From contig NC_135901.1 in assembly GCF_964194155.1 (NCBI RefSeq), positions 16,740,001-16,804,000 of the forward strand: a stretch of DNA of 64,000 bases. The letters run 5' to 3'. Positions within the stretch are counted from its first letter, which is position 1; each line of letters starts with the position of its first letter. A program made the translations under genes and the position numbers. Under the pieces are notes generated by a model. It was not told where the DNA came from and made no database searches. It was given only the letters and a program-made list of their open reading frames with translations. Origin of the DNA: Cetorhinus maximus. Its lineage: Eukaryota. This document shows positions 5,025-63,660 of this stretch, piece by piece.

Positions 5025-6188
5025 TCAGAATGAACATGGTTCAGTCCTGGTATGATTAACAGCATCAACAGGAGTAGAATCCAAACCTTGCAATCGCTTG
5101 TGAATCCACTGGTGTGTTCGCAGGGGTGATGACTGAGTGAATGCCTTTCCGCAGGCATTACAGGTGAACGGCCTCTCCCCACTGTGAACTCGCTGGTGTT
5201 TCAGCAGATAGGATGAATGAGAAAATCTCTTCCCACACACAGAGCAGGTAAATGGCCTCTCCCCACTGTGAATGCTCTGGTGTGTCAGCAGGTTGGATAA
5301 CTGAGTGAATCCCTTCCCACACACAGAGCAGGTGAACGGCCTCTCTCCACTGTGTACTCGCTGGTGATTCAATAGGTTGGATGACCGAGTGAATCCCTTC
5401 CCACACACGGAGCAAATGAACGGTCTCTCCTCAGTGTGAACCTGCTGATGTGTCAGAAGGTTAGATGAACGGGTGAATCCCTTCCCACAGTCAGAGCAGG
5501 TGAACGGTCTATCCCCCGTCTGAAGTTGCTGGTGTATCAGAAGGTTGGATGAATTAATGAATCCCTTCCCACAGTCAGAGCAGGTGAACGGCCTCTCCCC
5601 AGTGTGAATTCGCTGGTGATTCAGTAGGGCAGACGGATGGCTGAATCCCTTCCCACAGTTAATACAGGTGAATGGCCTCTCTCCAGTGTGAGTATATTGA
5701 TGTGTTAGCAGATCCTTTTTGCTTTTAAAGCTCTTGTCACAGTCAGTACAATTAAAAAATTTGTTATCAGAGTGAACAAGTTGATGTGTCAGAAGGTGGG
5801 ATGACTGAATGAATCCCTTTCCACACACGGAGCAGATGAACGGCCTCTCCCCAGTGTGAATACGTTGATGTATCAGCAGATCTTTTCTGCATTTAAAACT
5901 CTTCTCACAGTCAGAACATGTAAACGGTCTCTTATCAGTGTGAACAAGTTGATGTGTCACAATGTGGGATGACCGAGCGAAGTCCTTCCCACACACAGGG
6001 CAGGTGAATGGCCTCTCCTCAGTGTGAACTCGCTGGTGTGTCCGAAGGTTATACAAATGGGTGAATCCCTTCCCACAGATGGAGCAGGTGAACGGTCTCT
6101 CCCCAGTATGACTGCGCCGATGAACTTCCAGTTGGGATGGGAAATTGAATCCCTTCCCACAGTCCATACATTTCCATGGTTTCTCCAT
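5025..6188 (-). CDS. C2H2 zinc-finger protein, 13 fingers (one degenerate), subfamily A (gene 1)
   Basis: 387-aa ORF of CxxC..HxxxH repeats with TGERPF linkers; Kozak-like accATGG; AATAAA on minus strand at 4974-4990. Confidence 0.92.
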   Translation of the reverse strand: MEKPWKCMDCGKGFNFPSQLEVHRRSHTGERPFTCSICGKGFTHLYNLRTHQRVHTEERPFTCPVCGKDFARSSHIVTHQLVHTDKRPFTCSDCEKSFKCRKDLLIHQRIHTGERPFICSVCGKGFIQSSHLLTHQLVHSDNKFFNCTDCDKSFKSKKDLLTHQYTHTGERPFTCINCGKGFSHPSALLNHQRIHTGERPFTCSDCGKGFINSSNLLIHQQLQTGDRPFTCSDCGKGFTRSSNLLTHQQVHTEERPFICSVCGKGFTRSSNLLNHQRVHSGERPFTCSVCGKGFTQLSNLLTHQSIHSGERPFTCSVCGKRFSHSSYLLKHQRVHSGERPFTCNACGKAFTQSSPLRTHQWIHKRLQGLDSTPVDAVNHTRTEPCSF

Positions 6189-6809
6189 GGTGTGGGGGTC
6201 CTTGTCTATCTCCAGGTTGGACGATTAGTTGAAGCCTTGTCCACACACAACACATGTACAGTTTCTCCCCGCTGTGAATGGTGCGATATTTTTGCAGACT
6301 GTGTAACTGCTTAAAGTTTTTTCCAAAGTCAGTTCACTGGAACACTCTCACTCGGGTGTGTGTGTGTTGAGGCTTTTCCAGTCACACCGATGTTTGAAAT
6401 CCTTTCCCAAAGACAGAATAGACAAACATGTCTCCTTCCACATTCAAAAGTTGATGATACTCAGGTCCTGATGAATTCAGTGCCTCTGACAGATCTTGAT
6501 GTGATGTTTGCTTTGCGTTTTCTGTCTGCCAGTCATCCCCGTTTCATACCCTGTAAAACGAGTTTACAAAAGTCATCACTTTAAATCCAGGACTGAAATT
6601 CAGAACAGACAATTGTAGTTTCTATGGAACATTTCTTCCTCTCTTGTTCCCCCAAAGCTGTAAATCCCCGTCCCACACACTCTCCTTCCTCCCTGGGATG
6701 AAATCCAAACCCATCTCACCATCTCCACCATTTCTTTCCTCCACTCCCAGTTTTCTCCCTCCCTCTCCTCTGCCTGGGTTCAGTCCTCCAGCTCCTGTGT
6801 CTCTGATTC

Positions 6810-7250
6810 AGGGTCTCAGGCGGGACCCCAGCTGCCGTCGGGCGGGACACAGGAGGGGGGACCCTCCCGGGTGGGTCTTACCCGGACCCTGAGTCCGTCC
6901 CCCCAGTTTCTGAGCCCCCGGGCGGCCCGCGGGCTCCCCGCAGTTTCTGAATCTCCAGCTCCGGAGCCTCTTCCCCTGAACCCGGCTCTGTCACCGGGAA
7001 GAAGCCCCGGAGCTGCAAACACGGGTCATGGAGGCTGTGATCCGGGATTGCGGCCTACACCGGGTGTTTCTGGATCCTCCCCACCCCGGCTCCCAGAACC
7101 GCTCCGCCCTCCGCCTCAGCGAATCTCACCCGCGTCTCCCGCACTCCCAGGGCTCTGAGCAAACTGACACTGCGCATGCTCCAGGTATCATCAGCATTGC
7201 GCCTGCGCGTTGGGCTCCTGCACAGTGACTAGGGCACTTTCACACACGCA
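6810..7250 (-). promoter_or_regulatory. CpG-island promoter and first exon of gene 1
   Basis: CpG-rich; NRF1-type TGCGCATGC (7171) and TGCGCCTGCGC (~7198); candidate donor GTAAGA at 6881 and acceptor at 6551. Confidence 0.7.
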
Positions 7251-8074
7251 GGAGATTGTGGGTATCGGCAGTGCCATTGAAACACAAAATAGAGAACGAA
7301 AACAATTTTCTGATACCCAATTGTGAACAAATAAAAAGAAAAATCACACGCAAATCCTAGTAAATGGGTGCTCTGCCATGTTCCATTTCTAGAAGTGATT
7401 TAAACATATTTCAAGCCAGCTCAAACGTGTTAAGGGCAAGTCATGTTCAACTAACTTGCTGTAAATTCTTTACAAATGCCCATTCCCTTTCCTTCTGCTG
7501 TATAATGGAAGTTCCGTGCATTGGTGTTTCTTTATCATTTGGTTCTGATCTTTATTGATTGGTCTACGGTCAAAGTTTCAATCCCATAACCACAAAGTAA
7601 TCACAAAAAAAATATTTTCCACTCACAATTACCCAGCACCCCAGCAGCTGGGATTCTGCATTGCGACTGGATGAGCTCCTGCTCACAGATTCTGCCTCCG
7701 ACAAAGGTTGTTCTTGTAGTGGCTGTCCCTGTGATTGATTTTTTGCGGGTTTTTCTGGGATAAAATTGCCCGTTGCCCCCGTACAGTTGGAACCCTGGTT
7801 CTGAAATACTGTCCGTATGATTTTAAGGCTTCCTGGAATAATGCACCGATGGAAATCTGCAATAATCCATGGTCCCATCTGAGTTGCAGATTTTAATGTG
7901 ATTGTCCAATCTACAAAAAATATCATTTCACCCCTTTAAACCTGATTCAGCTGATCCCCTCCACACATACTGCAAAAGATTATCTTTGAGATCAGCTGTT
8001 CCTTTATAGTCTGTAAGAAATACAAAAAATTCTGGAAAAATTCAGCAGGTCTGACAGCATCTGTGGAAAGAAAC

Positions 8075-8120
8075 ACAGAGTTAATGTTTCGAGTCCGTAT
8101 GACTCTTCTTCAGAGTCTGT
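8075..8120 (-). ncRNA. Minimal type I hammerhead ribozyme motif in a Penelope-like pLTR
   Basis: ACAGACT-CTGAAGA-A-GAGTC(atacg)GACTC-GAAA-cat-TA-ACTCTGT: core, stem II and stem I (6/7 bp) are all present. Confidence 0.7.
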
Positions 8121-8399
8121 GTTATTCTGAATTATGACATTCTCCTGAACCTGTCCTAACCCTTCTGCCAGTTCACTTATTGGAAACAGGGACTCTCCTT
8201 GTTTTAATGTTAACACTCCATGTCTCCCCAGTTATTCATTTAAGTCAGCCCATGAATTGTTTGAGCATTGTTTCATCATGTTCCCACATTTCATTAACAA
8301 ATGTTGAAACGTATGCTTCACACCCACAGGGTTTCATCTGTTTAAAGCCACAAACAGAAAGGTCCAGTTTTCTCCTGGAGGTTGAGACAAATCAGCTTT

Positions 8400-8830
8400 C
8401 AAAATGATGCAGGGTTTCAGCCAATGAGGGACATCCGGATTCAGCCCCGCCCCTCATTCACTCCGATTGGTTGGAGGATCACACGCTCACGATCGGACCT
8501 CCAGCTCCGCCCCCTTTTCCTATTGGACCGGAGTTTCCGTCAATCCACAGGGCACTGTGATCTGGAGCATGCGCAGTGTGTGTAATGGCGGTGAACAGAG
8601 GCTTGTTTGTCGGATCCACAGGAGATAAGATAAAGGGCGGAGTGCAGGGAGAAATAAAGCCGGTAGGTGGACGGGGAGGGTTTGTAAGCACTCGATGCGG
8701 CTCTGAACCCAAAATAAGAAACTATCTGCAGGGCGAAGGCTGCGGGATCGGGCCTCCAGCAAAAGGCGCGGGTTAACAGCCGCCATCTTGAGCGGGGTTA
8801 ATGTGCAGCAGGGCGCATGCGCAGTCGTCC
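8400..8830 (+). promoter_or_regulatory. CpG-island promoter of gene 2
   Basis: CCAAT at 8421, 8466, 8522; GC boxes; NRF1-type sites at 8566 and 8813; YY1-type GCCGCCATCTTG at 8779. Confidence 0.75.
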
Positions 8831-9697
8831 CTGTCAGCAGGAGGAGAGGAGGTTGTGAATTTCTACCCTGGACTGACGGGGATGGATTTTGGAAACTCTT
8901 TTTACAGGGGATTGGAAGGGGAGGATTTACACACAGAGCAACTCAAAGCAAAGATCACATTAAGATCTGACTCGAGTCACTCGATTCATCAGGACCTGGA
9001 TATTATCGGTCTTTGAGTTTAAGCATTGAGTTCCAGGTCATTAACACTCAATGTGTGAAATTTCTTCCTCACATTCCTGCTGTAGATCTTACCCTAAATC
9101 TTAAATCTGTGTCTGTGATATTTTTATGATTAGCTAATACCTTATGTTTTTTTCATTCATTCACAGGATGTGGGCTTTGCTGGATGGGCCAGCATTTATT
9201 GCCCATCCCTAGTTTCCTTTGAAAAGGTGGTGGTAAGCTGGCCCTTCTAGGTGGTGGAGGTTCAGGGTTTTGAGTTTCTGTCAAAATTCTGGTTGAGTTG
9301 TAATCCCTCTTTCTCAAACGTTCCCTCTCCCACCCCAACCCTTCTCTCTCTTCCTGTCTTCTCCCATCTAGGCCTGTGCCTTGTGTAGGCCCAGACTGGG
9401 TGGCAGATTCCCTTCCCTGAAGGACATCAGTGAACCAGTTGAGTTTTTATGACAATCCAGCAGTTTTCATGGTCACTTTTCCCTGGTGCCGGCCCCACAA
9501 ATTACCAGATTCATTCAGCTCAATTTCACAACCTGTTTTTGTGGATTCTCTCTCACTCCCTTTTCTCTGTTTTAAATCAATTTCACAGGGTATTAGAAGG
9601 GGAGGATTTGCAGTTGGGAAACTGAAACCAAACATCACATCAGGATCTGACAGAGTTGCCCAGTTTATCGTCACCCAGATATCATCGGAAGTTGAAC

Positions 9698-10819
9698 ATG
9701 GAAGGAAAAAGCACCGTTCACAGTGGGGAGAAACCGTACACGTGTTCTGTGTGTGGACGAGGCTTCAACCGATCATCTAATCTGTCGAAACATAAATGCA
9801 GTCACAACAGGGAGAAACCGTGGAAATGTGGGGACTGTGGGAAGGGATTTAATTACCCATCAGAGCTGGAAAATCATCAACGAATTCACACTGGGGAGAG
9901 GCCGTTCACCTGCCCTGAGTGTAGGAAGGGATTTACTTGTTCGTCCAGCCTGCTGAAACATCGGCGAGTTCACACTGGGGAGAGGCCGTTCACCTGCTCC
10001 GAGTGTGGGAAGGGATTTGCTCGCTCATCCACCCTGCTGACACACCAGCGAGTTCACACTGACGAGAGACCTTTCAAATGTCCTGACTGCGGGAAGTGCT
10101 TTAAAAGTCCCCGGGAACTGACTGCCCATCAACGTGTTCACACTGACGAGAGGCCATTCAGGTGCTCGCACTGTGGGACTGGTTTCAAGACATTATTTAA
10201 CCTCACTGTACACCAGCGAATTCACACTGGGGAGAGCCCATTCACCTGCTCCAAGTGTGGGAAGGGATTTGCTAACACATCCACCCTGCTGAATCACCAA
10301 AGTGTTCACACTGATGAGAGACCTTTCAAATGTCCAGACTGTGGGAAGTGCTTTAAAAGTTCCGGGGACCTGATGATCCATCAACGTGTTCACACCGATG
10401 AAAGACCGTTCAGGTGCTCTCACTGTGGGACTGGGTTCAGACAATCATCTCAACTCATTGTACACCAGCGAGTTCACAATGGGGAGAGACCATTCACCTG
10501 CTCAGAGTGTGGGATGGGATTCACTCGCTTATCCATCCTGTTGACACACCAGCGCACTCACACTGGGGAGAGGCCATTCACCTGCTCTGAGTGTGGGAGG
10601 GGATTCACAACCACATCCTCCCTGCTGAGACACCAGCGAGTTCACACTGGGGAGAGGCCATTCAGCTGCCCCGAGTGTGGGAGGGGATTCACAACCACAT
10701 CCTCCCTGCTGAGACACCGGCGAGTTCACACTGGGGAGAGGCCATTCACCTGCCCCGAGTGTGGGAGGGGATTCATAACCTCATCCAAACTGCTGAAACA
10801 TCAGCAAGTTCACAAGTGA
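9698..10819 (+). CDS. C2H2 zinc-finger protein, 13 fingers, subfamily B (gene 2)
   Basis: [17 protein letters not shown]...; acceptor tttcacAG at 9587-9588; AATAAA at 10886 and 10924. Confidence 0.92.
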
Positions 10820-10989
10820 TTGGGTTTTTCTGTTAATCACATCCAGGACTGAACTGTGTCCATTTGGTCTGTTTCTGCTGATGTTAATAAACTCCAGTCC
10901 AATTAATATTCTGGATAAAGTCAAATAAATCAGCTTAAACTTGCACTGTGTTGAGTCTTTTTAATATCTCTAACACAAATTAGTTCCTT

Positions 10990-12878: not shown

Positions 12879-12879
12879 T

Positions 12880-14081: not shown

Positions 14082-14357
14082 TTTTTTTACTTATTTGTTC
14101 ATGGGATGTGGGTGTCGCTGGTGTCACTGGCTGGGCCAGCATTTATTGCCTATCCCTAATTGCCCTTGAGAAGGTGGTGGTGAGCTGCCTTCTTGAATCA
14201 CTGCAGTCCATGTGGGATAGGTACACCCACAGTGCTGTTAGGAAGTGGGTTCCAGGATTTTTCTTCCAGTGACAGTGAAGGAACGGCGATATAGTCCCAA
14301 GTCAGAATGATGTGTAGCTTGGTGGGGAACTTGAAGATGATGGCATTCTCATGCATC
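14082..14357 (-). mobile_element. 3' end of the second LINE family, inserted at the gene 3 stop codon
   Basis: Matches 24720-24960 and 41695-41940. Confidence 0.75.
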
Positions 14358-15056
14358 TTTGTGAACTCGCTGGTGTCTCAGCAGGGTGGATGAGTGAGCA
14401 AACCCCTTCTGACATACGGTGCAGGTGAATGGCCTCTCCCCAGTGTGAACTCGCTGGTGCTCCAGCTGGTTGGATAATGTAGTGAATCCCTTTCCACACA
14501 AGGAGCAGGTGAACGGCCTCTCCCCAGTGTGAATGCGCTGGTGTGTCAGCAGGTTGGCTAACTGAGTGAATCCCTTCCCACACTCAGAGCAGGTGAACGG
14601 CCTCTCTCCAGTGTGAACTCGCTGGTGTACAGTGAGGTCAGATAATTGCCTGAACCCAGTATGGCACCGAGAGCACCTGAATGGCCTCTCATCAGTGTGA
14701 ATACGTTGATGGCGCATCAGTTCACCAGAACTTTTATAGCACTTCCCACAGTCTGGGCATTTAAAAGGTTTCTCATCAGAGTGAACTCGCTGGTGAGCCA
14801 ATAGGTTGCATGACAGAGTGAATCCCTTCCCACACTCGGAGCAGGTGAACGGCTTCTCCCCGGTGTGACTGCGCCGATGAGATTCCAGCTGAACTGGAAA
14901 ATTGAATCCTTTCCCACAATCCCCACATTTACAGGGTTTCTCCTCAGTGTGACTGCGCTTGTGTCTCGACAGGTCAGATGATCGGTTGAAGCCTCGTCCA
15001 CACACAGAACATGTGTACGGTTTCTCCCAACTGTGAACGGTGTTGTTTCCTTCCAT
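14349..15056 (-). CDS. C2H2 zinc-finger protein, 8 fingers, subfamily B (gene 3)
   Basis: [17 protein letters not shown]...; acceptor at 15166-15167; stop codon lies in an inserted LINE fragment. Confidence 0.88.
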
Positions 15057-15589: not shown

Positions 15590-16375
15590 CCTAGTACTGG
15601 ATGAACAGAAATTTCCTCCAGTTAAATATCGTGAAGACCAAAGACATTGTCTTCAGTCCCCGTTCTAAACTATTCCATAGCCACTGACTTCATTCCTCTC
15701 CCTGGCAACTGTCCCAGGCTGGACTAGACTGGGCACAATCTCAGTGTCATGTTTCCCCCCAGCTGATCTCCTGACCACAGAACACCGCCTATTTCCACCT
15801 CAGTAACCTCACCTGCTTTTCCCGAGTCAGCTAATCTGCTTCTGAAACTATCATCCACTCCACTCCCTAAATTTGACTATTCTAATTCATCCCACATTCA
15901 ACCTCTCTGTAAAGCTGAGATCATCCAAAACTCTGCTACCCTTCACTGCTCTGCTCACTGAGCTACTTAGGCTTCAGGTTGAGCAGTGCTTCAAATCTTA
16001 AAACTTTCATCTGTTTCCAAATCTCTCCAAAGCTTTGCCCACCCCTATTTCTGTCATCTCCTCCAGCCCCACAGTCCTCTGAGATCTCTGTGCTCATCTA
16101 ATTCCAATCTCTTCAGCATCCCCATTTTCAGTTCCTTCAGTGTTTGTGGCTGGGCCAAAGGCAAAAACTCACAATATCCCTCATGAAATCTCTCCACCTC
16201 TGTAACTTACTTTCCTCATTAAGACACTCCTTCAAACCTACCTCTTTGACCAAACTTTTGACTTTCTTCCCTGATATCTCCGTGTGTCTCGGTGTCAGAT
16301 GTTGCTTTGTAAAACTCCCATAAAACACCCTGGAATGTTTGATTACATCAAAGGCACTATATAAATGAAAGTCAA
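15590..16375 (+). mobile_element. L2 LINE 3' relic
   Basis: Ends in the aaaggcactatataaatg tail; homologous to 32900-34160. Confidence 0.65.
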
Positions 16376-17145
16376 TGTTACAGACTTGGACACATATCAC
16401 CATTATAAATGTAAGTCAATGTTACAGACTAGGACACATATCACCGTTATAAATGTAAGTCAATGTTACAGACTAGGACACATATCACCGTTATAAATGT
16501 AAGTCAATGTTACAGACTGGGACACACATCACCATTATAAATGTAAGTCAGTGTTACAGACTGGGACACACATCACCGTTATAAATGTAAGGCAGCGTTA
16601 CAGACTTGGACACACATCACCGTTATAAATGTAAATCAATGTTACAGACTTAGACACACTCACCATTATAAATGTAAGTCAGTGTTACAGACTGGGACAC
16701 ACATCACCGTTATAAATGTAAGTCAATTACAGACTGGGACACACATCACCGTTATAAATGTAAGTCAGTGTTACAGACTGGGACACACATCACCGTTATA
16801 AATGTCAGTCAATTACAGACTGGGACACACATCACCGTTATAAATGTAAGTCAGTGTTACAGACTGGGACATACATCACCGTTTAAATGTAAGTCAGTGT
16901 TACAGACTGGGACACACACACCGTTATAAGTGTAAGTCAGTGTTACAGACTGGGACACACATCACCGTTATAAATGTAAGTCAGTGTTACAGACTGGGAC
17001 ACACATCACCGTTATAAATGTAAGTCAATGTTACAGACTGGGACACACATCACCGTTATAAATGTAAGTCAATGTTACAGACTGGGACACACATCACCGT
17101 TATAAATGTAAGTCAGTGTTACAGACTGGGACACACATCACTGTT
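16360..17145 (+). repeat. 44-bp minisatellite, ~18 copies
   Basis: Unit ATAAATGTAAGTCAGTGTTACAGACTGGGACACACATCACCGTT repeated head-to-tail without spacers. Confidence 0.95.
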
Positions 17146-17800: not shown

Positions 17801-18249
17801 GAATTTCTCACCTGGACTCAGTGAAACCTCCCTGGAAACTCCTTTTACAGGAGTTAGAACAGGAGGATTCCCAAGCGGGAACCTCAAACCAAATATCATG
17901 TCATGATCTGACAGTTACTCGATTCATCAGGACCTGAATATCATCGTCCTCAGAATGTGGAAGGTGAAATGTCTGTGGGCAAAGATTACAGATATTAGAG
18001 AGACTGGGAAACTTTTAATGATCTTTTCAGGTTAAATTTGAGACCAATTCCATCGATCTCGTTGGGAATGTTGAAGAATTTTTTGTATGCAGGCAAATTA
18101 CCTCGTGTGCTTAAATAAACATACTTGGCAGCTAAAGTGGGCAAACCGTTGAGCTGTGTTATTAGTGAGAGTTACAGTCCCAGTTTTGGGTAAAGTTTGT
18201 TGTCCATGTCGCAATTCATTCAGTCCGCTGTGTCCGTGATGACCGACTA

Positions 18250-19920: not shown

Positions 19921-19929
19921 TGTTCATGT

Positions 19930-21295: not shown

Positions 21296-22194
21296 TTTAG
21301 GTCTGACTCAATTATACAAACCAGGAATGAAGGAGCCAATACTGAGCCCTGTGAAACCCCACTGGAAACAGCCTTCCATTCACAAAATACCACCCATGGA
21401 CCATCATAATCACTTCCTGCTGTTGAGCCAATTTTGGATTCAACTTGTAACTTTCTCTGGGATCCCATGAGTTTTTATTTTTCTGCCCAGTCTGCCATTT
21501 GGGACCTTGTAGATGTGGAGAGAGAATGTTTCCATTTGTCGGAGAATCCACAACTAGGAGCCAGAAATACAAGATAGTTACTGATAAATCCAGGAGGGAA
21601 ATAAGGAGAAATATGTTTACTCAGAGTGGTTAGAAAGTGGAACTCACGACCACAGGAAGTGGTTATGGCAAAAAGCTGAGATGATTTCAAAAGGAAACTA
21701 GATGAGTACATGAGAGAAAAAGGAATAGAAAGATGAACTGAAAGACTGAGCTGAGTTAGATGGAATGGAAGGGGAAGCGTGTGGTGTGTAAACACCAGCA
21801 CACACTAGTTGGTCCAATGGCCTCTTTCTATTCTATATTTTCTCTTTTTACAGGCATGGAGTGTCAAAGAGAAACTAAAACCAATTATCAAGATTTGTCA
21901 GAGCCACTCAATTCATCAGGACCTGAATATCATTGGCCCTTGAACGTAGAAGCAGAAATGTTTGTCTGTTCTGTCTGAGGAAAAAATTTCAAGCATCAGC
22001 GTGACTGGAAAAGACACCCACACACTCGAGTGAAAGTGTTCCAGTGCACTGACTGTGGAAAGAGCTTTGACCAGTTACACAGCCTGAAAAAGCATCATAC
22101 CATTCACAGTGAGGAGAAACTGTACACATGTACTGTTTGTGGACAAGGCTTTAATTGATCACCTAACCTGGAGAGACACAAGGACGCCCGCACC

Positions 22195-22698
22195 ATGGGG
22201 AAACCATGGAAATGTGGGGACTGTGGGAAGGGATTCAAATACTCATCCCGGCTGGAAACTCATCGACACACTCACACTGCGGGGAGACCGTTCCCCTGTT
22301 CCATGTGCCCAAAGGGATTCGCTCAGTCATCCGACCTTCTAAGGCACCAAGTCACTCACACTGAGGAGAGGCCATTCACCTGCTCCATGTGTGGGAAGGG
22401 ATTCATTAATTCATCCGACCTTCGGATACACCAGCGAGTTCACATTGGGGAGAGGCTGTTCACCTGTTCTGCCTGTGGGAAGGGATTCAGTCAGTCAGCC
22501 CACCTGCTGGCCCACCAGAGAGTTCACACTGGGGAGAGACAATTCTCCTGCTCCGACTGTGGGAAAGCATTCATCCATTCATCCCATCTGCTGAGACACC
22601 AGCGAGTTCACACTGGGGAGAGGTTGTTTACCTGCTCTGAGTGTGGGAAAGGGTTCACTCAGTCATCCCATCTGGTGAGGCACCAGCGAGTTCACTAG
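22195..22698 (+). CDS. C2H2 zinc-finger protein, 6 fingers, subfamily A (gene 4)
   Basis: 167-aa ORF, cgcaccATGG start; acceptor at 21852-21853; AATAAA at 22835. Confidence 0.85.
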
Positions 22699-35421: not shown

Positions 35422-36626
35422 ATGGAAGGAGAAAGCACTGTTCACAGTGGAGAGAAACCGCACACGTGTTCTGTGTGTGGTCGAGGCTTCAGCCAATTAT
35501 CTGACCTATCAGAACATAAATGCAGACACAACAGGGAGAAGCCGTGGAAATGTGGGGACTGTGGGAAAGGATTTAATTACCCGTCTGACCTGAAAACTCA
35601 TTGGCGCAGTCACACTGGGGAGAGGCCATTCACCTGCTCCGAGTGTGGGAAGGGATTCACTCAGTCCTCCCACCTGCTGATACATCAATGTGTTCACACT
35701 GATGAGAGACCATTCAGGTGCTCTCACTGTGGGATGCGTTTCAGGCGATCATCTGACCTCAGTATACACCAACGAGTTCACACTGGAGAGAGGCCGTTCA
35801 TCTGCTCCAAGTGCGGGAAGGGATTCACTCGATCATCCAACTTGCTGATACACCAGCAAATTCACACTGGGGAGAGACCATTCACCTGCTCCGAGTGTGG
35901 GAAGGGATTCAATCATTCATCTGACCTGCTGCAACACCAGCGCGTTCACACTGGAGAGAGGCCATTCACCTGCTCTGAGTGTGGGAAGGGGTTCACTTGT
36001 TCATCAGACCTGCTGACACACCAGCGAGTTCACACTGGGGAGAGACCATTCATTTGCTCCAAGTGTGGGACAGGATTTGCTCGCTCATCCACATTACTGA
36101 GGCACCAGCGAGTTCACACTGACGAGAGACCTTTTAAATGCCCAGTCTGTGGGAAGTGTTATAAAAGCTCCAAGGAACTGTTGTCTCATCAACGTGTTCA
36201 CACGGATGAAAGACCATTCAGGTGCTCTCTCTGCGGGACTGGATTCAATCAATCATCTGACCTCACTGTACACCAGCGAATTCACACTGGGGAGAGGCCA
36301 TTCACCTGCACGGAGTGTGGGAAGGGATTCACTCAGTCATCCAATCTGCTCAGACACCAGCGAGTTCACACTGTGGAGCGACCGTTTAAATGCTCAGACG
36401 TGGGAAGTGTTATAAAGGTTCCCAGGAACTGATGTCCCATCAACGTGTTCACGCTGACGAGAGACCATTCAGGTGCTCTCAATGTGGGACTGGATTTAAG
36501 CGATCATCTCAACTCACTGTACACCAGCGAATTCACACTGGGGAGAGACCGTTCAGCTGCACAGACTGTGGGAAGGGATTCACTCAGTCTTCCGCTCTTC
36601 TGAGACACCAGCGAGTTCACAAGTAA
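35422..36626 (+). CDS. C2H2 zinc-finger protein, subfamily B (gene 5): 11 intact fingers, then a 1-nt frameshift and 3 more fingers
   Basis: ORFs 35416-36432 and 36390-36626 overlap; gac-gtggg at 36397-36404 lacks the T of gactgtggg. Confidence 0.8.
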
Positions 36627-41690: not shown

Positions 41691-41694
41691 CATT

Positions 41695-42178: not shown

Positions 42179-43215
42179 CCTTTGCTCCCTCGGCTTGACA
42201 CATTTATTTGTCTGGCTAAAAGGATGGCCTCTTTCCTCATGTTCACAATTAAAGTGGTGGATTCCCCAGGAGATGGCTGACATTTAAGGGGACAGTAAAG
42301 TAATATAGGACAGAGATATGCCTGGTGTTTTTATATGATATATATTAGATATGTTATTTATGATTCTGTCATAAAGTTAATTTATTATTATTTCTAGTCT
42401 TGTAACATAGCACTGTGCTATGTTATATATTTAGAGTCAGTCATTATGGCACAGAAGGAGTCCATTCAGTAATTCAAATCCAAGCTGATTCTCTGTAGAG
42501 TAACCCAGTCAGTCCTATTTCCCTTCTATATCCCCGTTCCCCTGCAAGTTTATTTCCTTCAAGTGCACACCCAGTTTCATTTTCATATCATTGACCATCT
42601 CCACTTCCACCACACAGTGAGTTCCATGTCCAGCAGCCTGCCTGAACATTTTCAGGTCTCTGTGTCCTGGACAGGAAGCGATGGGCATGGATCTGTTAGG
42701 TCAGCAGATTGAGATTGGATGGAGAATATGTGGGATCGAGATTGACAGTCTTTGGGGAATGAAAGAGGAAAGAATGTTCCATAGAAAGTAGACTTGTGTG
42801 TTCTGAATTTCTATCCTGTACTGACAGTGATGACTTTGAGAAACTAACTCCATTTACAGGATATTAGAAATGGAGGATGTAAAGACAGAAATCGCAAACC
42901 AAACATTACATCCAGACCTGACTTGATTTATGGGAGCTCAATATCATCAGTCTTTGAACTAGAAAGAGAAATGTTTGTTCTGTCTGCTTCAACAGATTTT
43001 AAAAGTCACTGTGTCTGGAAAATCACCAAGAAGCTCGCGTACACACACACGTGAGAGAGTTCCAATGCACTGACTTTGGAGAAAACTTTAACCAGATGCA
43101 CAGACTGAAGAAACATTGCACCATTCACAGCCGGGAGAGACCGAACACGTGTACTGTTTGTGGATGAGGCTTCAGTTAAACATCTTACCTCAAGGAATGC
43201 AAGGACACCCGAACC

Positions 43216-43974
43216 ATGGAGAAACCATGCAAATGTGGGGAATGTGGGAAGGGATTCCGGTCCCCATCTGCGCTGGAATCTCATCGCCGCATTCACACTG
43301 GGGAGAGGCCGTTCACCTGCTCTGATTGTGGAAAGGGATTCACTCAGTTATCCCACCTGCAGATACACCAGCGACTTCACACCGGGGAGAGGCCGTTCAC
43401 CTGCTCTGATTGTGGGAAGGGATTCACTAACTCTTCCAATCTGCGGACACACCAGCGAGTTCACACGGGGGAGAGACCGTTCACCTGCTCCAAATGTGGG
43501 AAAGGTTTCAGTGATTCATCCAGCCTGCTGATACACCAGCGAGTTCATACTGGGGACAAATTATTCAACTGCTCTGTATGTGGGAAGCAATTCAGCCGAT
43601 TATGCAACCTTCTGCGACACCAGCGAGCTCACACTGGGGAGAGGCCATTCACCTGCTCTGAGTGTGGGAAGGGATTTGCTGATCCATCCATCTTGCGGAA
43701 GCACCGGCGAGTTCACACTGGGGAGAGGCCATTCATCTGCTCCATGTGTGGGAAGGGTTTCACTCAGTTAACCAACCTGCTCACACACCAGCGAGTTCAC
43801 ACTGGGGAGAGGCCTTTCATCTGCTGTGAGTGTGGGAAGGGATTCAGTGATTCATCCACCCTACTGCGACACCAGGGTGTTCACACTGGGGAGAGGCCGT
43901 TCACCTGCTCCATGTGTGGGAAACGATTCACTCGGTCATCTCACCTGCTGAGACACCAGCGAGTTCACCAGTGA
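43216..43974 (+). CDS. C2H2 zinc-finger protein, 9 fingers, subfamily A (gene 6)
   Basis: 252-aa ORF; accATGG; acceptor tttacAG at 42858-42859. Confidence 0.9.
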
Positions 43975-53006: not shown

Positions 53007-53849
53007 TTACTTGTGAACTCTCCGGTGTCTCAGCAGACTGGATAACTGACTGAAACCCTTCCCACACATAGAGCAGGTGAATGGCCTCTCACCAGTGTGA
53101 ATTCGCTGGTGTCTCAGCAGGGTGGACGAATCTCTGAATCCCTTCCCACATTCAGAGCAGATGGACGGTCTCTCCCTGGTATGAACTCGCTGTTGCATCA
53201 CCAGGTTGCATGACTGAATGAATCCTTTCCCGCATCCAGAGCAGGTGAATGGCCTCTTCCCATTGTGAACATGTTGGTGTGTCTGCAGGTGGGATAATTG
53301 AGTGAATCCTTTCCCACACTCGGAGCAGATGAAAGGCCTCTCCCCGGTGTGAACTCGCTGGTGCGTCAGCAGGTTGGATGACTGAGGGAATCCCTTCCCA
53401 CATGTAGAGCAGATAAAGGGCTTCTCCCCGGTGTGAACCCGCTGGTGTGTCAGGAGGGCAGATGAATCGCTGAATCTCTTCCCACACTCAGAGCAGGTGA
53501 ATGGCCTCTCCCTGGTGTGAACTCGCTGGTGCATCAGCAGGTTGGATGACTGAGTAAATCCCTTCCCACACTCAGAGCAGATAAATGGCCTCTCCCCAGT
53601 GTGAACTCGCTTGTGTGTCAGCAGGTGAGATGAATTACTGAATCCCTTCCCACATTCAGAGCAGATGAATGGCCTCTCCCCGGAGTGAACTCGCTGGTGT
53701 TTCAGCAGGGTGGATGACTGAGTGAATGCTTTCCCACACTCAGAGCAGGTGAAAGGCCTCTCCCCAGTGTGAATGCGTTGATGAGTTTCCAGCGCAGATG
53801 GGGTGCAGAATCCCTTCCCACAGTCACCACATTTGTACGGTTTCTCCAT
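53007..53849 (-). CDS. C2H2 zinc-finger protein, 10 fingers (one lacking the first His), subfamily A (gene 7)
   Basis: 280-aa ORF; acceptor at 54219-54220; donor GTGAGT at 55192-55197 (minus). Confidence 0.9.
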
Positions 53850-55329
53850 GGTGCAGGTGTCCTTGTGTCCCTCCAGGTTAACTGCTCAGTTGAAACCTTG
53901 TCTTCACACAGAACATGTGTACAATCTCTCCCCGCTGTGAATGGCGTAATGTTGTTTCAGACTGTATAACTGGTTAAAGCTCTTTTCACAGTCAGTTCAC
54001 TGGAGCATTCTCACTCAGTTGTCTGTGTCTCATTGCTTTTCCAGTCACACTGATGCTTGAAATGTTTTCCCACAGACAGAACAGGGGAACATTTCTCCTT
54101 CCATATTCCACATTCAAAGGGCTGATGATATTCAGGTTCTGATGAATCCAGTAACTCTGTCAGATCTTGACGCGATATTTGGTTTGTGTTTCCCAGATAC
54201 AAGTCCTCTCCTAATATCCTGTAAAAGAAGTTTACAAAAGTCATCATTGTCAGTGCAGGATAAAAATTCACAACACATAACTCTAGTTTCTACGGAACAT
54301 TCTTTCTCTCGTATTCCCCAGAAGCAGTAACTCTCTGTGCCTCCATTCTCACTGTGCTGTACCTCCCAAATCTCCTGAAGGTGCCATTTCATGCTGATCA
54401 GCAGATCCATGTGCACTGCTTCCTGTCCAGGGCACAGGGGCCTTGGAAATCATTATGCAGGCTATATATATATGTATACATTACTGGATTTAAAATGTGC
54501 ATAATATACACTGCACTACTTGATTAAAGATACAGAGAGGATGCAAGGAAGAGCTTTATTTAGGAGCGAGTGTGCATGACCTGGAACTCTCTGCCTGCAA
54601 GGCTGGAGGAACTCGCGATGATCAGTGATTTCAAAATGAAATTGGTGGACACTTGAAGGAAATAAACTTGTAGGAGAACGGGGCATAGAGGGAGAATGGG
54701 ATGGATAGCTCTACAGAGAGTCGGCATGGACTTGAGTTGCTGAATGCATTCCTGTGCTGTAATGACTCGATGACGGGAAATATATAACGGTAGCTAGAGT
54801 ACTATATTACAAGACTAGACATATTTATAAATGAAAGTTATTATTGGTCAACAAAAAATATATCAAATATTTACCATATAAAAACATTCGACATATCTCT
54901 GCCCTATATTAGTTTACTGCCACCTTAAATGTCAGGCATCTCCTGGGGAATCCGCCTATTTTATTGGAAATACTAGGAAAGAGGCTATCCTTTTAGCCAG
55001 ACAAATAAATGTGTCAAGCTGAGGGAGTAAAGTATGTCATTGTCTTTAAGAGAGAGCGAGAGAGAAGGACAGACCTGGGCCAACCTTTCCAGAGTCTGCA
55101 CCCTCTTCCTTTCCCTTCAGTTTCTGCAGGTCAACAATTTAAACCCAGAATTAGAAAAGAAATGGAAAGGGGGAGAAAAAGAAAGTGTTTTACTCACAGG
55201 TATTTGACATGGGACTGGGGAGAAAGTTTTCGTGTGTGAGAAGCTAAATCCTCATTCAGAGAGAGAAGCAGCATCAGCAGCTTTGCTGGGCAGTAATGGA
55301 CAGGTTTAAAAGCTCGAGGGATCCATTGT

Positions 55330-55970
55330 CCAACATGCGCATTCAAACAATGGGGGAAGTTCCGTGTCCTCATTGCGACAGTGGCCGCGCTCTGATTGGT
55401 TGGAGGACCATCCACCTTCCGGTCGTCCAGCTCCTCCCATTGGTTAACCTCGGTCCGACCACAATGAGGGAGAGTAACCCGAGCGCGTGTTCGGTGGAGA
55501 GAGTTTGACCATCAAGTCCAGTGCTCTCAATGTGAACTGGGAACGCTCCTCTGAATCATTGTGACGCCTGAATCAGCCAATAGGACTGACTGTGCTCCGC
55601 GGTGACGTCCTCGGGTTCCAGTTTGCGGACCAGGCGCGCGGACACGGGAGCCCCACCCCCACCCATTGTTCCCCCTCCCCCACCCATTGTTCCCCCTCCC
55701 CCACCCATTGTTCCCCCTCCCCCACCCATTGTTCCCCCTCCCCCTGCACTTCCTCGAGCCAAAGTTTCCAGGCAACCGGCTGACGGCTCCGGCCAGAGCG
55801 AGAAGCCGCTCAGCGAATTCCCCCTCCCCCCCTCTGTCTACGGCGACCGGCTGGTCCAAAAAGAGATCGAGAGCGACCGCTGACGGCAGCCGCACTGCGC
55901 CTGCTTCGGACAGAAAACGCTTTCTGCGCCTGCGTGCTGGGCTGCCGGCTATGGGGGTGCGGGAGGGGAC
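55330..55970. promoter_or_regulatory. Bidirectional CpG-island promoter between divergent genes 7 and 8
   Basis: CpG-rich; CCAAT boxes, TGACGTC, NRF1-type TGCGCCTGC; flanked by homologous outward-facing GTGAGT donors. Confidence 0.75.
55655..55745 (+). repeat. 21-bp C-rich tandem repeat, ~4 copies
   Basis: Unit CCCACCCATTGTTCCCCCTCC. Confidence 0.9.
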
Positions 55971-57445
55971 TGTGTAAAATGTCTTCTCATTTTCTTCCAA
56001 TGCAATTTGACTTTAAACGGCACAGCATTTGTTTTTAGGTTCATAAACATTAAAACTTCTTCCTCGGTCCAACATCTGTGAGTAAATCACTTTCTTTCCT
56101 TCCCCTGGGAAATACAGAGAGTTGCGGGAATCTGTAACTGGAATTAGTGCCAAATATGCTGAGGGGGGAAATGCTGGTGATTTTGTGGACCAGGCTGATG
56201 CTCCAGCTGTTTAAAGTCATATTTATCCGGTCTATTGAAATGCCATTTGTCTGTTAATGCAGGCTTCATTTATGTTGAATTTAGTTTGATTGTTACCGGA
56301 ATCGTTTTTAAAAAATAAAACCTTGTCCTTCTGTTTATTCCGTTGGGGTTGTCTGGGAATTTGTTTATTTTAAGGTTATTGGTTTCCACAGGGATCGTAA
56401 CAACAGAGAAATGTCTAGTTATTTATTATTCTGTATTAAAGTTCATTTATTATTATTTCTAGTCCTGTAATAATACTGTAGCTGCATTATATATTTCCAG
56501 TCATAAACGCATTACAGCACAGATGGTGTCCAATTGGAAACTCAGATCCATGCTGACATTCTGTAGAGTAATCCAGTCGATCCCATTCTCCATCTGTATC
56601 CTCGTTCCCCTGAAAGTTTTTCTTTCAACTCCCTATCCAATTTCATTTTGAAACCATTGATCATCTCCGGTTCTGCCATCCTCATAGGCATCGAATTCCA
56701 GGCCATGACTACTTGCTGTCTAAATAAAGTTCTTCCTCATATCCCCTCTGTATCGCTATTCAAGTATTACAATCTTTTTGGCTCCTTCAGGAGAATTGGG
56801 AATGTATAAATGAGATATAACAGAGTGAGAATGAAGGGAGTAAAAACAGAAAATGGTGCAAAAAACTCAGCAGGTCTGGCAGCATATGTGGAGCAAGAAA
56901 CAGAGCTAACATTTTGAATCTGTCTGAACATTCCTGAGAGCTCAAAATGCAGGGAGCATGTTGGGGATGGAGATTTACAGCCTTTGGGGAATGAGAGGGG
57001 AAAGAATGTTCCATAGAAACTAGAATTGTCTTCTGAATTTCTATCGCAGACTTTCTGTGATGACTTTTGTGAACTCCTTTTACAGGACATTAGAAGGGGA
57101 TGATTTGCAGTCAGAAAACTCAAACCAAAGGTCACATCAAGATCTGGCAGAGCCACTCGATTCATCGGGATCGGTATATCAGCAGCCTTTGAATCTAGAA
57201 GAAATATTTGTCTGTTATGTCTGCTTCAAAATATTTGAAACATCAGTGTGACTGGAAAAGCACCGATTCTCACACACCCGAGTAAGTGTATTCCAATGCA
57301 CTGGCTTTGGAAAGAGCTATGAACTGTTATACAGTCTGAAGAAACATTTCAGCTTTCACAGCCAGGGAGACCGTACACAGGTTCTGTGTGTGAACGAGGC
57401 TTCAACTGATTGTCAAACCTGGAGAGACACAAGGGCACTCGCACC

Positions 57446-58120
57446 ATGGAGAAACCATGGAAATGTAGGGATTGTGGGAAGGGATTCCGATGCCCGTCTG
57501 CACTGGAAATTCATCAACGCAGTCACACTGGGGAGAGGCCATTCACCTGCTCTGAGTGTGGGAAGGCATTCAGTGGTTCATGGCAGCTGCACGCACACCA
57601 GCGAGTTCATGCAGTGGAGAGGCCATTCACCTGCTCTCAGTGTGGCAAGGGATTCAGTGATTCATCAACCCTGCTGAGACACCAGCGAGTTCACACTGGA
57701 GAGAGGCCGTTCACCTGCTCTGAGTGTGGGAAGGGATTAACCCAGTTATCCAACCTGCTAACACACCAGGAAATTCACACCGGGGAGAGGCCATTCACCT
57801 GCTCTCATTGTGGGAAAGGATTCACTCGGTTATTCAACTTGCAGACACATCAGCGAGTCCACACCGGGGAGAGGCCGTTCACCTGCTCTGTGTGTGGGAA
57901 GGGTTTCACCCAGTCATCCAACCTGCTGCTACACCAGCAACTTCACACTGGGGAGAGGTCATTCCCCTGCTCTCAGTGTGGGAAGGGATTCACTCGATTA
58001 TCCAGCTTACAGAGGCACCAGCGAGTTCACACCGGGGAGAGGCCATTCATGTGCTCTGTGTGTGGGAAGGGATTCACTCAGTCATCCCACCTGCAGACAC
58101 ACCAGCGTGTTCACAAGTGA
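57446..58120 (+). CDS. C2H2 zinc-finger protein, 8 fingers, subfamily A (gene 8)
   Basis: cgcaccATGG at 57446; acceptor at 57084-57085; donor GTGAGT at 56078. Confidence 0.9.
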
Positions 58121-58197
58121 TCACAGAGATTGGATTCTGCTCTTATTGCTGCTGTTAATCACATCCAGGACTGAACCATGTTCATCCTGACAGTTGG

Positions 58198-58338
58198 AGG
58201 TGTCAGCTGTGGCTCAGTTCATAGCACCCTCGCCTTTGAATCAGAGGGTTGTGGGTTCATGTCCCACTCCTGGAAACCAAGAACTGTGATTGTACTTGAA
58301 AGAGTTGCAATCTGTGACTGTTGATAACTCGAAAGAGT
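58198..58338 (+). mobile_element. SINE head insertion in the gene 8 3'UTR with 17-bp direct repeats
   Basis: TTCATCCTGACAGTTGG at 58181-58197 and 58339-58355. Confidence 0.75.
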
Positions 58339-58759
58339 TTCATCCTGACAGTTGGTGAAGTGGGAGGATCCCTTTCTGCTGGACTGGCCGGTCTCATACC
58401 TTTGTTTCCAGTGAGCTGATGCTCTTTGAGGCTTGTTGCGAGTATCCATTGCACATTTCATATGGATCATAAAATAAAATGCTGTAGAGATGGAAAAAGA
58501 TATTCATGCATTTCTGTTTGGAATCTCCTAAAGCATGCCATGTTGCCATGGAGATGGGCTGTTGGAGTTAGAAGGTTCTTTTGTTTGATTTATCTGGGTG
58601 TTTCCCACAGAAGGCAGTTGCACATCTGGGCTTGTGTAGTTTGCAGCTCACTTGGAGTTGGTGAGGGAAAAGAAGCTGGAAGATTTGCCTGGCTTGGAGC
58701 TAGAGGATGAAATCTACAGTGGCCCTCCCAGTGAAAGGCCTTGTGGTAGAAAGCAGTTA

Positions 58760-59465
58760 ATCATATGAATTAGGAGCAGGTATAGGCCATTCAGGCCTGT
58801 GAGCCTGCTCGGCCATGTGATAAGATCATAGCTGATCTAATTGAGGCCCCAACTCTACTTTCCTGTCTACCCCCATAATCTTTGACTCCCTGTCAATCAA
58901 GAATTAACTCAACCTCAAAATTATTCAATAGCCTCCACTGCTTTCTGGTGAAGAGAATTCCACAATTGACGACCCTGTGAGAGGACAAATTTCTCATCTC
59001 TGTCTCAAATGGGAGACCCCTTATTTTTAAACAACGGCCCCGATTTGTCGTCTCTCCCATAAGGAGAAACATGTTCAGCCTCCGAAGTGGCCAGGAGGCA
59101 CAGATTTGTTTCAGAGCAAAAGGAGGCCATTCAGCCCATCGTGACTGCACCTGCTTTTTGAATGGTCATTTGATTTAGAGCCGTTCTCCCGCCTTCTACT
59201 TATAACCGTGCACGTTCTTCCTTTTCCGGTAACAATCTAATTCCCTTCTGAATGCTTCAATTGAACCTGCCTCCACCACACTCCCAGGCAGTGCATTCCA
59301 GACCTTAACCACTCGCTGCGTGAAGAAGGTTTTCCTCGTGTCACTTTTGCTTCTTTTACCAACTACTTTAAATCTGTGCCCTATCGTTTTTGATCCTTTC
59401 AGAAGGGGGAGCTCATCTCATTCTCCCCATCAACCCTGTCCAGACCCCTCATGATTTTGAATACA
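58760..59465 (-). mobile_element. Two CR1 3' fragments
   Basis: CR1 3'UTR motifs ggccattcagccc and ORF2 C-terminus. Confidence 0.7.
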
Positions 59466-59474
59466 CTTCAAGCC

Positions 59475-59790
59475 CACTGAAACACCAGTTCTTCACACTG
59501 GGGAGAGGCCATTCACCTGCTCTGAGTGTGGGAAGGGATTCACTCGTCATCCCACCTACTGGCACACCAGGGAATTCACAAGTAACTATCGTGATTGGAT
59601 TTTGCTGTTAATCACAAACAGAACTGAACTATGTTCATTGGGGTCTGTTTCTGCTGATGTTAATAAACTCCAGCCCAGTTATAGGGCATAGTATTGTGGA
59701 TAAAATTCAAATCAGCAGCTTTGTGTTAAATACAGTGTGTTGAGTCTTTTTAGTATCTCTGAGACAAGTTAGTTCCTTTTGAAGGGCTCT
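59475..59790 (+). pseudogene. 3' remnant of a subfamily B ZNF gene (last finger plus 3'UTR)
   Basis: cacactggggagaggccattcacctgc..., frameshifted, followed by a 3'UTR matching 10820-11000. Confidence 0.8.
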
Positions 59791-61014
59791 CCCTCTCCCC
59801 TGTCTCCTCCATCCTCATTGCCAACAAGTGTGAGAAGCTCATGGAGTTTCTTTGTCACTAAGATTGAAACAATTTGATCAGCTGCCTCTGCTGCCTCCCT
59901 CCCTTCCACTAGATCACCTTTCCAATTAACCTTGAATGTTCCCCCCTCGCCCTGAACGTACATCTTTCTGTAGTTTCTCTCCCATGTCCCCTCGTTCCTT
60001 CTCAGCACTTAGCTTTGCCATGAGACCCATCTCCTGCTACCCCAGCCCTATTTTCACTCATTTGTTGATCTCCAAGCTTCCCATGGTCATTAACATTGTT
60101 AACAGTTCTCTCTCTTCAGGCACTGCTCCTCTCTCCTTCAAATCTGACATTATCACCCCCTCCTCAATAAAATCAACCATTGATCCCACCATCCTTGCAA
60201 ACCACTCCAAGCTCCCTTTCCCCTTCTAAGTCCTGAAATGCGTTGACACCTCCCAAATCCTGCCCATCTTTTTGGAATTCCATTTTTGAATCTGAACATA
60301 TGAAATAGGAGCAGAAGTAGGCCATTTGGCCCCTCGACACACAAGATTTCTGCCTCTGCCACATTATCGAAGTAGCTCTTCTCATCGTCCTAAACTGCAT
60401 CCAATGTAACCAAGGTAAACTCTCCCTCATTGTCCTTTGTCCTTCTTGGCCCATCTACAGTCTTTGACACCATTGACCAAACCATCCATAGCGATGGTGA
60501 ATAAATGCTGGCCTAGCCACATCCCATAAATGAATTAAAACATAAATTCCTTCAATGCCTCTTCACTGTTGTCCAGCTGGGTGGGACTGATCCCTGATTC
60601 CTTTCTTATCAAATTGTAGCAAGAGGATCAGCTGCAGTAGCTGTGATTATTTGAGGTGTTTTTTTACAAACTGACTCACTGGGAAAATGATCATGTGTCA
60701 CTAGACATTAACATAAAAATGTTCCATTATCAGTCTCACATTGACTGTCTCTTACAGACCAAGTCCTTCTAAATATATCACCGCTCCTGGATTAGATCAG
60801 CAGGGAAAAGTGAAGATGGTGTAGTCCACAACCCAATCTAATAGCAGTAAAAATATCTGAAAATTCCCATTAAAATGCAAGGCATTGCAGAGCAACTGTG
60901 TCTTCTGTGACTTATTGAAACAGTCATTACACAGATTGGCCAAAAGCTCCATTATTGCAGGATGCGGATGGTAGAATATGGAGCTTGATCTTTCTTATTT
61001 TTCAACACCGGCAT

Positions 61015-61490
61015 TAGCGGAATCTCACCCCCACTTCCCTAGAATCAAACGAAGATTAAGTGAGTTCGCTCTCTAATGGCGGCCGCAGTACCCACAATAC
61101 CATACGGCTCAGAAATCGCTCCATCTGCCGCGGGTTGGCCGGGTGGATCGCGCATGCTCGGAGGGTCCTGGTCTCTTTGTTTGAGGTTGTTCCCGGAGAG
61201 AAGCCGGAAGTGGCGGATAGTGAGAGTGGAGAATGTTCATTGTTTAATATTCGGCTCTGGGGCCGCACTCGGGATTTGTAAACCCCGCCCCCCTGCCCGG
61301 GGTTTATTCACCTGACAGTTCACGATGCGCGGCTGATTGACGGCGGAGCTAGACCAATAGGAAGAGGGGGCGGGGTTGGAGGCATGAGCACCGACGGCTG
61401 ATCCTCCAACCAATTAGAGTGAATGAGGGGCGGGGCTGAGTCCAGATCAGCCTCATTGGCTGAAACTCTGCATCATTTTTAAATGGGCAA
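61015..61490 (-). promoter_or_regulatory. CpG-island promoter with no intact cognate ZNF exon
   Basis: Inverted copy of the 8400-8560 CCAAT cassette; CCGGAAGT at 61204; gcgcatgc; donor-like gtgagattc at ~61028 (minus). Confidence 0.6.
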
Positions 61491-61524
61491 TGGGAGATGT
61501 CACAGAGCTGGAAGCAGGCAGCCT

Positions 61525-62080
61525 GGAGTATTGTGTGCAGTTTTCGTCTCCTTACCGAAGAAAGGATATACTTGCCACAGAGGAAGTGCCTGCAAAGCTT
61601 CACCAGCCTGATTCCTGGGATGGCAAGATTGTTGTATGAGGAGAGTTTTGGGTCGACTAGGGCTGTATTCACTAGAGTTCAGAAGAATGAGAGGGGACGT
61701 CATTGAAACGTATAAAATTCGGGCAGAAGTGTACAGACTGGATGCAGGGATGATGTTTCCCCTGGCTGGGTTTGGGGGAGTGAGTGGTGGGGGGCGTCTG
61801 GAACAAGGGATCAATCTCAGGATATGGTGCAGGCCATTTAGGACTTAGTTGCGGAGAAATTTCTTTGCTCAGTGCGTGGTGAACCTGTGGAATTGTCTAA
61901 CACAAAAGGCTGTGGAGGCCAAATCGCTGAATAGATTTCTAGACATGAAAGGCATCAAGGGGTTTGGGGAAAGAGGGAGAGTATGATGTTGAGGTAGAGG
62001 GTTAGCCATGATCATTTGAATGGAAGAGCAGGCTCGAGGGGCCAAATGGCCTACTCCTGCTCCTATTTTCTATGTTTCTA
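61525..62080 (+). mobile_element. CR1 3' fragment
   Basis: LGLYSLEFRRMRGDVIETYKI; tail tctatgtttcta. Confidence 0.85.
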
Positions 62081-62224
62081 AGTGTCTATGCCTTGGTAAT
62101 GGAGCCGATGTTGGTCACAAAATCAGTTCAAGGTGAAATCAACATTGAGATGATGAACAATGTGGCTCAGACTCAGGTGGTGGCCAGAATAACAACAGAA
62201 CAATAGAATCCAACCAATACAGTC

Positions 62225-63660
62225 AGATGTGAACTTATTGTTGTGTCAGAAGGTTGAATGATCGAGTGAATCCCTTCCCAGATTCAGTGCAGGTGAATGG
62301 TTTTCTCTCCATTGGTATTTCATCTGATCTTTAGAGCTTTGAAAACTCTTCAAACAGTGAGAACAATTAAAAGGTCTCTTATCAGACTGAACAACCTGAT
62401 TGGCAGTGAGGTTGGACACACAAGTGAATCAGGATCGGATGTGTCAATAAATTTCAGTTATGGAGCAGCTCTATTAAGAGAAAGGCAGGACAAACTTAAA
62501 GACTAAAGGTAAAGTTCAGGCAGTGATTTACAGAACAACGTGAGCTCTATACTTCCCTTGTCATATCTGGACAGCAGAGCACACTTCTTCCCTTGGAGCT
62601 TCCAGTTTTCTTGTGGAGTTTCCAGCTTTCGTGTTTCTTTCTCTTCTTTCCTTTGTTCTTTTCTCCACTGCACCAAACCCCTCAGGTGGACTGTTCTTAT
62701 GCTGGAAACCCCCCAACTGGCTCCCCTGAGGCCACCAATCAGAACTGTCCATGGACATTTCACTATTCAATCATGTGGCTCTTGTCCAATCACAGGTGTG
62801 TTCATGTGAACAGCATTCGCCTGTTGATGAGAGCACACACATATTCCTCTGTGATTACATAGAACTTCTGCACTTCCACCATCTCACAGTTCTAAACTCA
62901 GACAAGCCGGTTCAAAGCATGACATCACCTCCACAGATTCTACCCTACAGATCAACACACAGGCAAAGAAAGAACACAACTTCTGCAGACTATATTAATA
63001 CACAGTCAAAGAAAGAACAGAATTCTCACAGACTGTATCCGGAGAATGGATGACTGAGTGAAGCTCTTCCCACACACGGAGTAAGTTTTACGGTTTCTGC
63101 TCACTGTGAATGTGCTGGTGTTTCTGGAAGCTGGATGATTCGATGAATCCCTTCCCACACACAGTGCAGGTGAATGGCCTCTCTCCAGTGTGACTGTGCC
63201 AATGAGTTCCCAGCCGGGATAGAGAACTGAATCCCTTCTCACAGTCCCCACATTTCCACGGTTTCTCCCTGTTGCTTAATCCTTGCTGACAATTCTTATT
63301 GACTTACATACTCTTCAAAGTGAAACCTCCATTATGAAATTAAATTATCAAACAACAGGAATCAAAACAGTGAAATATTTTACAGGCACATCAATAAAAG
63401 TTTAATCAATCGACATTGATATTGATGAAGTTTTGAAGTCGCTGAGTTCAATCATTTCTTACATAGCAGCAGTAACATTTGGTAAAGGGGAATCCACAAC
63501 AAAGGCTGGTTTGAGACCTACTCAGCAGAGATGACATCTATCATTGAAGCAAAAAGCAAAGCTTACCTGATGCACAACATAAACCCAACAGCTAAGTACT
63601 GTGTGCAGTACCCTGTTACTAGTGTCCATGTGTCTCTCCAGGTTGGACGATCAGTTAAGC
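62225..63660 (-). pseudogene. Fragmented subfamily A ZNF pseudogene
   Basis: Finger remnants at ~62225-62400, 63050-63270 and 63620-63660, separated by insertions and frameshifted. Confidence 0.75.

Follow-up and report, generated by a model that had tools for sequence, protein, structure and literature searches.

A stop codon shared by the zinc-finger genes of a clustered subfamily in Cetorhinus maximus as a probable inherited relic of a fossil reading frame

The window analysed here, a stretch of 64,000 nt from Cetorhinus maximus (assembly GCF_964194155.1, contig NC_135901.1, forward-strand positions 16,740,001 to 16,804,000), is part of a 65-Mb contig in a genome of 4.0 Gb and carries C2H2 zinc-finger genes, namely five of subfamily A (A1 to A5), three of subfamily B (B1 to B3), and one broken copy. 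In each of the five A genes, a stop codon stands in frame with the start accATGG, with 39 nt from its first base to the A of the ATG (36 nt between; position -39 in the following). Very probably, this shared stop is a nonsense mutation that was received from the common ancestor of the subfamily and that now drifts near-neutrally as part of an untranslated leader. A preliminary description of the window had listed the five stops with their TGA and TAA states, their frame, and their 39-nt spacing, all of which is borne out on the gene strand; its further proposal, that the stop is maintained by selection, is not.

The A genes are built alike, with a fossil leader directly followed by the open reading frame (ORF). 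On the minus strand, A1 has an ORF at 5025..6188 (387 amino acids, 12 C2H2 fingers), preceded by a leader of three dead fingers (6189..6550) which begins at a splice acceptor predicted from the sequence; the stop is TAA at 6225..6227 (read 6227-6225) and lies in the third fossil finger. The second minus-strand gene, A4, comprises an ORF at 53007..53849 (280 amino acids, 9 fingers), a leader at 53850..54218, and the inherited TGA at 53886..53888 (read 53888-53886), with another in-frame stop 18 nt upstream. The plus-strand genes are A2 (leader 21854..22194, inherited TGA 22156..22158, ORF 22195..22698 with 167 amino acids and 6 fingers), A3 (leader 42860..43215, inherited TAA 43177..43179 with a second in-frame stop 12 nt upstream, ORF 43216..43974 with 252 amino acids and 9 fingers), and A5 (leader 57086..57445, inherited TGA 57407..57409, ORF 57446..58120 with 224 amino acids and 8 zf-C2H2 stretches). 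The ORF of the A type starts five residues before the first finger, and its ATG occupies the Gly position of a TGEKP-type linker, as had been described. A5 and B1 contain 8 and 12 PF00096 stretches, respectively, the tandem period being 84 nt; a KRAB domain was found neither among all 25 Pfam hits of A5 nor among the best 25 of 30 for B1, upstream exons lying outside this search. Judged from their sequences, A and B genes are tandem C2H2 (Krüppel-type) genes without effector domain.

In the B genes, the first two fossil fingers are absent, the reading frame starts at an ATG of its own, and the third finger is still coding. As stated in the preliminary description, they carry CGA or CAA in place of the stop and no ATG in the linker, which has AGG or GAG instead. 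B1 (9698..10819, plus strand) starts from its own upstream ATG and has CGA at 9770 within a coding finger and AGG in the linker; B2 (14352..15056, minus strand) has CGA at 14984-14982 and GAG; and B3 (35422..36429, plus strand) has CAA at 35494 and AGG. Ten non-redundant hits of the B type, one of which is a deleted A gene, include five with CAA and two with CGA at this position. The linker ATG of the A genes is likely derived from a B-like AGG. Decay of a CpG usually turns CGA into TGA when it affects one strand and into CAA when it affects the other; a CGA to TGA origin of the -39 stop is therefore likely right. The broken copy, finally, has the homologous TGA that had been reported for it (63651..63653, read 63653-63651 on the minus strand), so that the minus strand carries three of the six cited stop codons (A1, A4, pseudogene). 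In the linker of this copy, AGG takes the place of ATG and is interrupted by about 340 nt of inserted sequence (approximately 63273-63617), the copies of a 7-nt direct repeat being located at 63617 and 63273. The pseudogene (63273-63653, minus strand) joins an A-type stop to a B-like linker and has an in-frame ATG five codons before the linker AGG; it may be a mosaic or represent a stage preceding the new ATG.

The exact 24-nt start motif occurs in 808 copies in the genome. The stop had been called invariant in all subfamily A genes, which is true of the five genes of the window and fails genome-wide, where the -39 codon is TGA or TAA in 650 of the 808 motifs (TAA in 54, mostly apparent copies of one A1-like lineage) and an in-register stop is absent in 158. 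Among the latter, 119 do not even have a T at -39, many of them by short indels pushing TGA out of frame and others by AGA, GGA, CGA, or CAA. For quantitative tests, 160 stretches of 10 kb (1.6 Mb) were sampled where the cluster is more diverged, with blind tiling within blocks. A profile built from the five window genes retrieved 193 A-type leaders in these tiles, giving 198 together with the window's five, of which 86 were dropped at 93% or more identity to another. The remaining 112 non-redundant paralogs are the basis of the counts below, and a replicate comprised 15 further non-redundant genes. Many copies are 95-100% identical, while the non-redundant leaders average 87% identity to their consensus and those of the window are 71-79% identical to one another; the paralog tree is star-like, terminal branches making up 9.9 of 12.4. 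The ATG or four intact fingers are missing in 54 of the 112 genes (5 of them cut by the tile end), which indicates a high death rate. Rearranged starts were seen as well: in L113 and L129 the whole leader plus first finger is tandemly duplicated ahead of the array, and in L045, L040, L047, and others the start motif is repeated after the first finger, so that another in-frame start lies about 96 nt further downstream.

The leader of the A genes, about 360 nt of the last exon counted from the predicted splice acceptor, still reads in its majority sequence as one frame encoding three C2H2-like fingers, interrupted by three consensus stops at -210, -198, and -39; an additional stop at -57 is present in 31 genes. 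Codon position has an effect in the first coding finger (P=0.0085) and none in the leader (P=0.76). The Cys and His residues are kept at frequencies of 0.54-0.88 in the fossil fingers versus 0.94-0.98 in the first real finger, and frameshifting indels affect 14 to 50 of the 112 genes per 36-nt leader block, the first 84 coding bases being hit in 5/112. With its stops, frameshifts, missing codon periodicity, and loss of key residues, the leader has the marks of a neutrally decaying fossil ORF. A protein search with one fossil frame (X at stops; 12 hits among 48 candidates) returned no chondrichthyan protein with an intact fossil part, which is weak evidence, and a search with A5 returned mostly generic fingers. 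Contigs of relatives from runs guessed to be RNA bridge the stop and the ATG; this RNA status is a guess, and strand and splicing are not firmly readable from the contigs. The least diverged part of the leader is a 40-nt stretch at about -172 to -132 (e.g., window positions 57274-57314), with a divergence of 0.066-0.067 versus about 0.12 elsewhere; as a candidate cis-element it would be preferable to the stop.

The preliminary description had seen in a CGA to TGA change plus a new start the event by which the N-terminal fingers became 5' leader. The fossil finger ORF and the B genes, which keep CGA or CAA in a coding context, agree with this; that the -39 stop was the first lesion does not follow, because it is one of three consensus stops. 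The new start itself is well preserved, the linker ATG being kept in 103/112 genes (null mean 0.72, P=0.002). In its context, a purine is found at -3 in 112/112 and G at +4 in 110 genes, with 7 of the 115 A columns of the leader being equally purine-invariant.

Within the window, the invariance of the stop is not beyond chance, because two out-of-frame TGA triplets, one at -260 and one at -164, are likewise stops in 5/5 genes; 23 of the 121 codons of the fossil frame are invariant across these genes. Among the paralogs, the -39 codon is a stop in 100 of the 110 genes having the codon present (0.91). The leader contains seven other TGA triplets, of which six are out of frame; as controls, these remain stops at frequencies of 0.835, 0.784, 0.870, 0.833, 0.856, 0.945, and 0.891, the out-of-frame triplet at -145 being retained more than the -39 stop. 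The replicate gave a stop in 12/15 genes, with controls ranging from 10/13 to 13/14. Parsimony counts on the tree amount to 7 changes of the T and 10 of the G of the -39 codon, which correspond to the 62nd and 60th percentile of leader columns of the same base. Switching between TGA and TAA had been taken as a hint at selection; TAA is found in 8/110 genes (null mean 0.06, P=0.29), as fits a leader in which G>A (0.074) is more frequent than A>G (0.054), and the out-of-frame control at -164 switches between TGA and TAA in the window genes, too. TGG is as rare at the control TGAs (0-3) as at -39 (1). Net indels between stop and ATG have occurred in 27/112 genes, 23 of them frameshifting, without bias towards frame preservation, and the stop is in frame with the ATG in only 82/112 genes. 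Selection on the stop is not borne out by these data, retention lying within the range of the TGA controls, TAA arising at the neutral rate, and frameshifts occurring at the rate usual for the leader. A comparison of intact with broken genes was without power and is not counted as support, because start context (57/64 intact versus 44/48 broken) does not separate the groups either; the stop is kept in 53/58 intact and 43/47 broken genes (Fisher P=1.0, low power; 5 of the 54 broken genes ran off the tile and 2 more were gapped).

Several results weigh against purely neutral drift. The -39 TGA ranks second of the eight leader TGA triplets in retention, and its final A, with 2 changes, is among the lowest 7% of A columns and is the source of the retention excess. 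When the reference is random T/G/A triples of the leader, for which retention is 0.786 +/- 0.089, the observed 0.909 gives P=0.04, a local null gives P=0.045, and P=0.0005 follows from a plain binomial, in which neither shared ancestry nor rate differences among sites are considered. Moreover, the block places of the sample were chosen partly from a list of motifs lacking T at -39, and losses may be slightly enriched. The comparison of stop retention with neutral expectation that had been called for is thus divided in its outcome, neutral by the seven TGA controls and the replicate yet with P=0.04 against random triples. More weight is given to the triplet controls because a stop persists better in actual TGA triplets than in random triples; what is left is a possible weak constraint on the final A of the stop.

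That the stop could be kept by selection as the terminator of an upstream open reading frame (uORF), begun at AUG or another codon and controlling re-initiation at the main ATG, takes up the functional idea of the preliminary description. The retention values against the random-triple nulls would speak for it, every leader has at least one upstream ATG (112/112, mean 3.6), and in 14/112 genes an ATG-started uORF does end at the -39 stop. However, these 14 uORFs start at scattered sites (-54 to -234) and none belongs to a window gene (0/5). Of the 101 genes scored as having the stop, 87, among them all five of the window, have the frame of the stop blocked further upstream in the exon, with no ATG from there on; a uORF ending at the stop can thus not draw its start from exon 1 either. 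ATG starts only were examined. A conserved upstream AUG in frame with the stop, as would characterize a regulatory uORF, was not found. Retention of the old Met (-243), in 76/112 genes with 8 gaps, is near the null of 0.72, frameshifts in the two preceding 36-nt blocks (23 and 50 of 112) scramble the frame of the stop, and the control TGAs are retained equally well; selection for such a terminator is accordingly regarded as highly improbable. In 52/112 genes (23/58 of the intact ones), out-of-frame upstream ATGs open a reading frame that overlaps the main start, often owing to CpG decay at -52, -67, and -69.

No more probable is a constraint on the letters rather than on the stop, CTGAT or CTAAT serving as splice branch point or protein-binding motif. 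The branch-point consensus is yUnAy, which TGA and TAA both fit, and the A at -37 has undergone only 2 changes; yet the T at -39 has a median rate of change, and the 36 nt downstream of the stop are 44% pyrimidine, without a tract. In addition, guessed-RNA contigs of relatives (X5 records 17 and 23; X6 record 25) span stop and ATG unspliced, a weak argument, and no GT..AG joint into the 36-nt gap was seen among the 15 of 78 joints listed. Gene conversion among the paralogs, which would restore the majority TGA by homogenising the leader, would be neutral, too, but would make the tree-based counts unreliable. The copies of 95-100% identity and the pseudogene, in which the stop is A-type and the AGG linker B-like, are compatible with it; the 87% identity to consensus, the 71-79% among window genes, and the star-like tree argue against it, and little credence is given to it. 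Translation of the fossil fingers by stop read-through or recoding can draw on a consensus frame that is open except for three stops and is practically negligible in view of frameshifts in every leader block, the -57 stop in 31 genes, the decayed Cys and His residues, and the lack of codon periodicity. A bolder reading, which is improbable but deserves mention, takes the leader as a shared translational brake in which non-AUG or shifting uORFs end at the stop often enough to hold its final A weakly; a chromosome-scale family would then be tuned at once, and ribosomes would be spared stalling from tandem fingers. If the weak residual signal were true, one leader element would tune the translation of hundreds of transcription-factor genes.

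In the preferred scenario of an ancestral nonsense mutation, the common ancestor would have lost its N-terminal reading frame by a CGA to TGA change at the CpG of position -39 and by two further stops upstream. Translation would have shifted to the new linker ATG, probably derived from AGG, and the truncated gene would then have been copied hundreds of times. TGA would decay slowly, because it is no longer a CpG, and G>A, the commonest change of a leader G, would incidentally give another stop. For initiation at the main ATG, leaky scanning would be predicted, or else re-initiation behind short uORFs that are not conserved and mostly terminate at other sites. The stop pattern is no evidence of a new control mechanism.

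Besides the genes, some further features of the window may be mentioned. A4 and A5 are arranged head to head (53849-57446), with a GC-rich stretch at about 55.5-56.0 kb between them that contains a 21-nt tandem repeat (55651-55744) and is likely a shared promoter. Isolated leader fragments with no finger array behind are located at 8900-9020 and 17843-18012, and a 44-nt minisatellite of 18 copies with 93% matches is found at 16360-17145.

The case illustrates cleanly how a gene is truncated at its N-terminus through a nonsense mutation plus a new start codon and is then duplicated en masse. The stop may serve as shared derived marker of the subfamily, which numbers at least 800 copies. Literature searches yielded no paper on this leader or stop, and neither "zinc finger" nor "C2H2" occurs in the main text of PMC10620051. 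The family and the linker ATG occur in another shark record, because P0116 from Heterodontus francisci shares with the A genes both the residues derived from the leader and the start motif T-M-E-K-P-W-K-C; since named relatives with this start motif come from a shark (P0116), the family is called shark-type. The designations of P0116 and P0098, "zinc finger protein 239/530-like", are automatic names, and the gene model skips the stop-bearing part. For annotation, the subfamily is a warning that gene models may splice around fossil stops. Ribosome stalling on tandem zinc fingers is reported in PMC11620358, and re-initiation after a uORF or premature stop is described in PMC10275272. With the latter system the A genes share a stop upstream of the start; it differs in needing an upstream start whose frame ends there, which is absent in 87/101 genes. 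The closest parallel is offered by the cyprinid FiNZ-ZNF and tetrapod KRAB-ZNF families, which, according to the searched passages of PMC10547256 (where cartilaginous fish are not mentioned), likewise comprise hundreds of clustered, duplicating genes with tandem C2H2 fingers in the last exon and TGEKP-type linkers. FiNZ-ZNF genes are marked by a 28-amino acid FiNZ domain on an upstream exon; in the A genes, the frame of the ATG is closed by stops on its upstream side. Unlike the proteins of these two families, the shark A protein has its start inside the finger exon, where an ATG derived from the linker follows three dead fingers.

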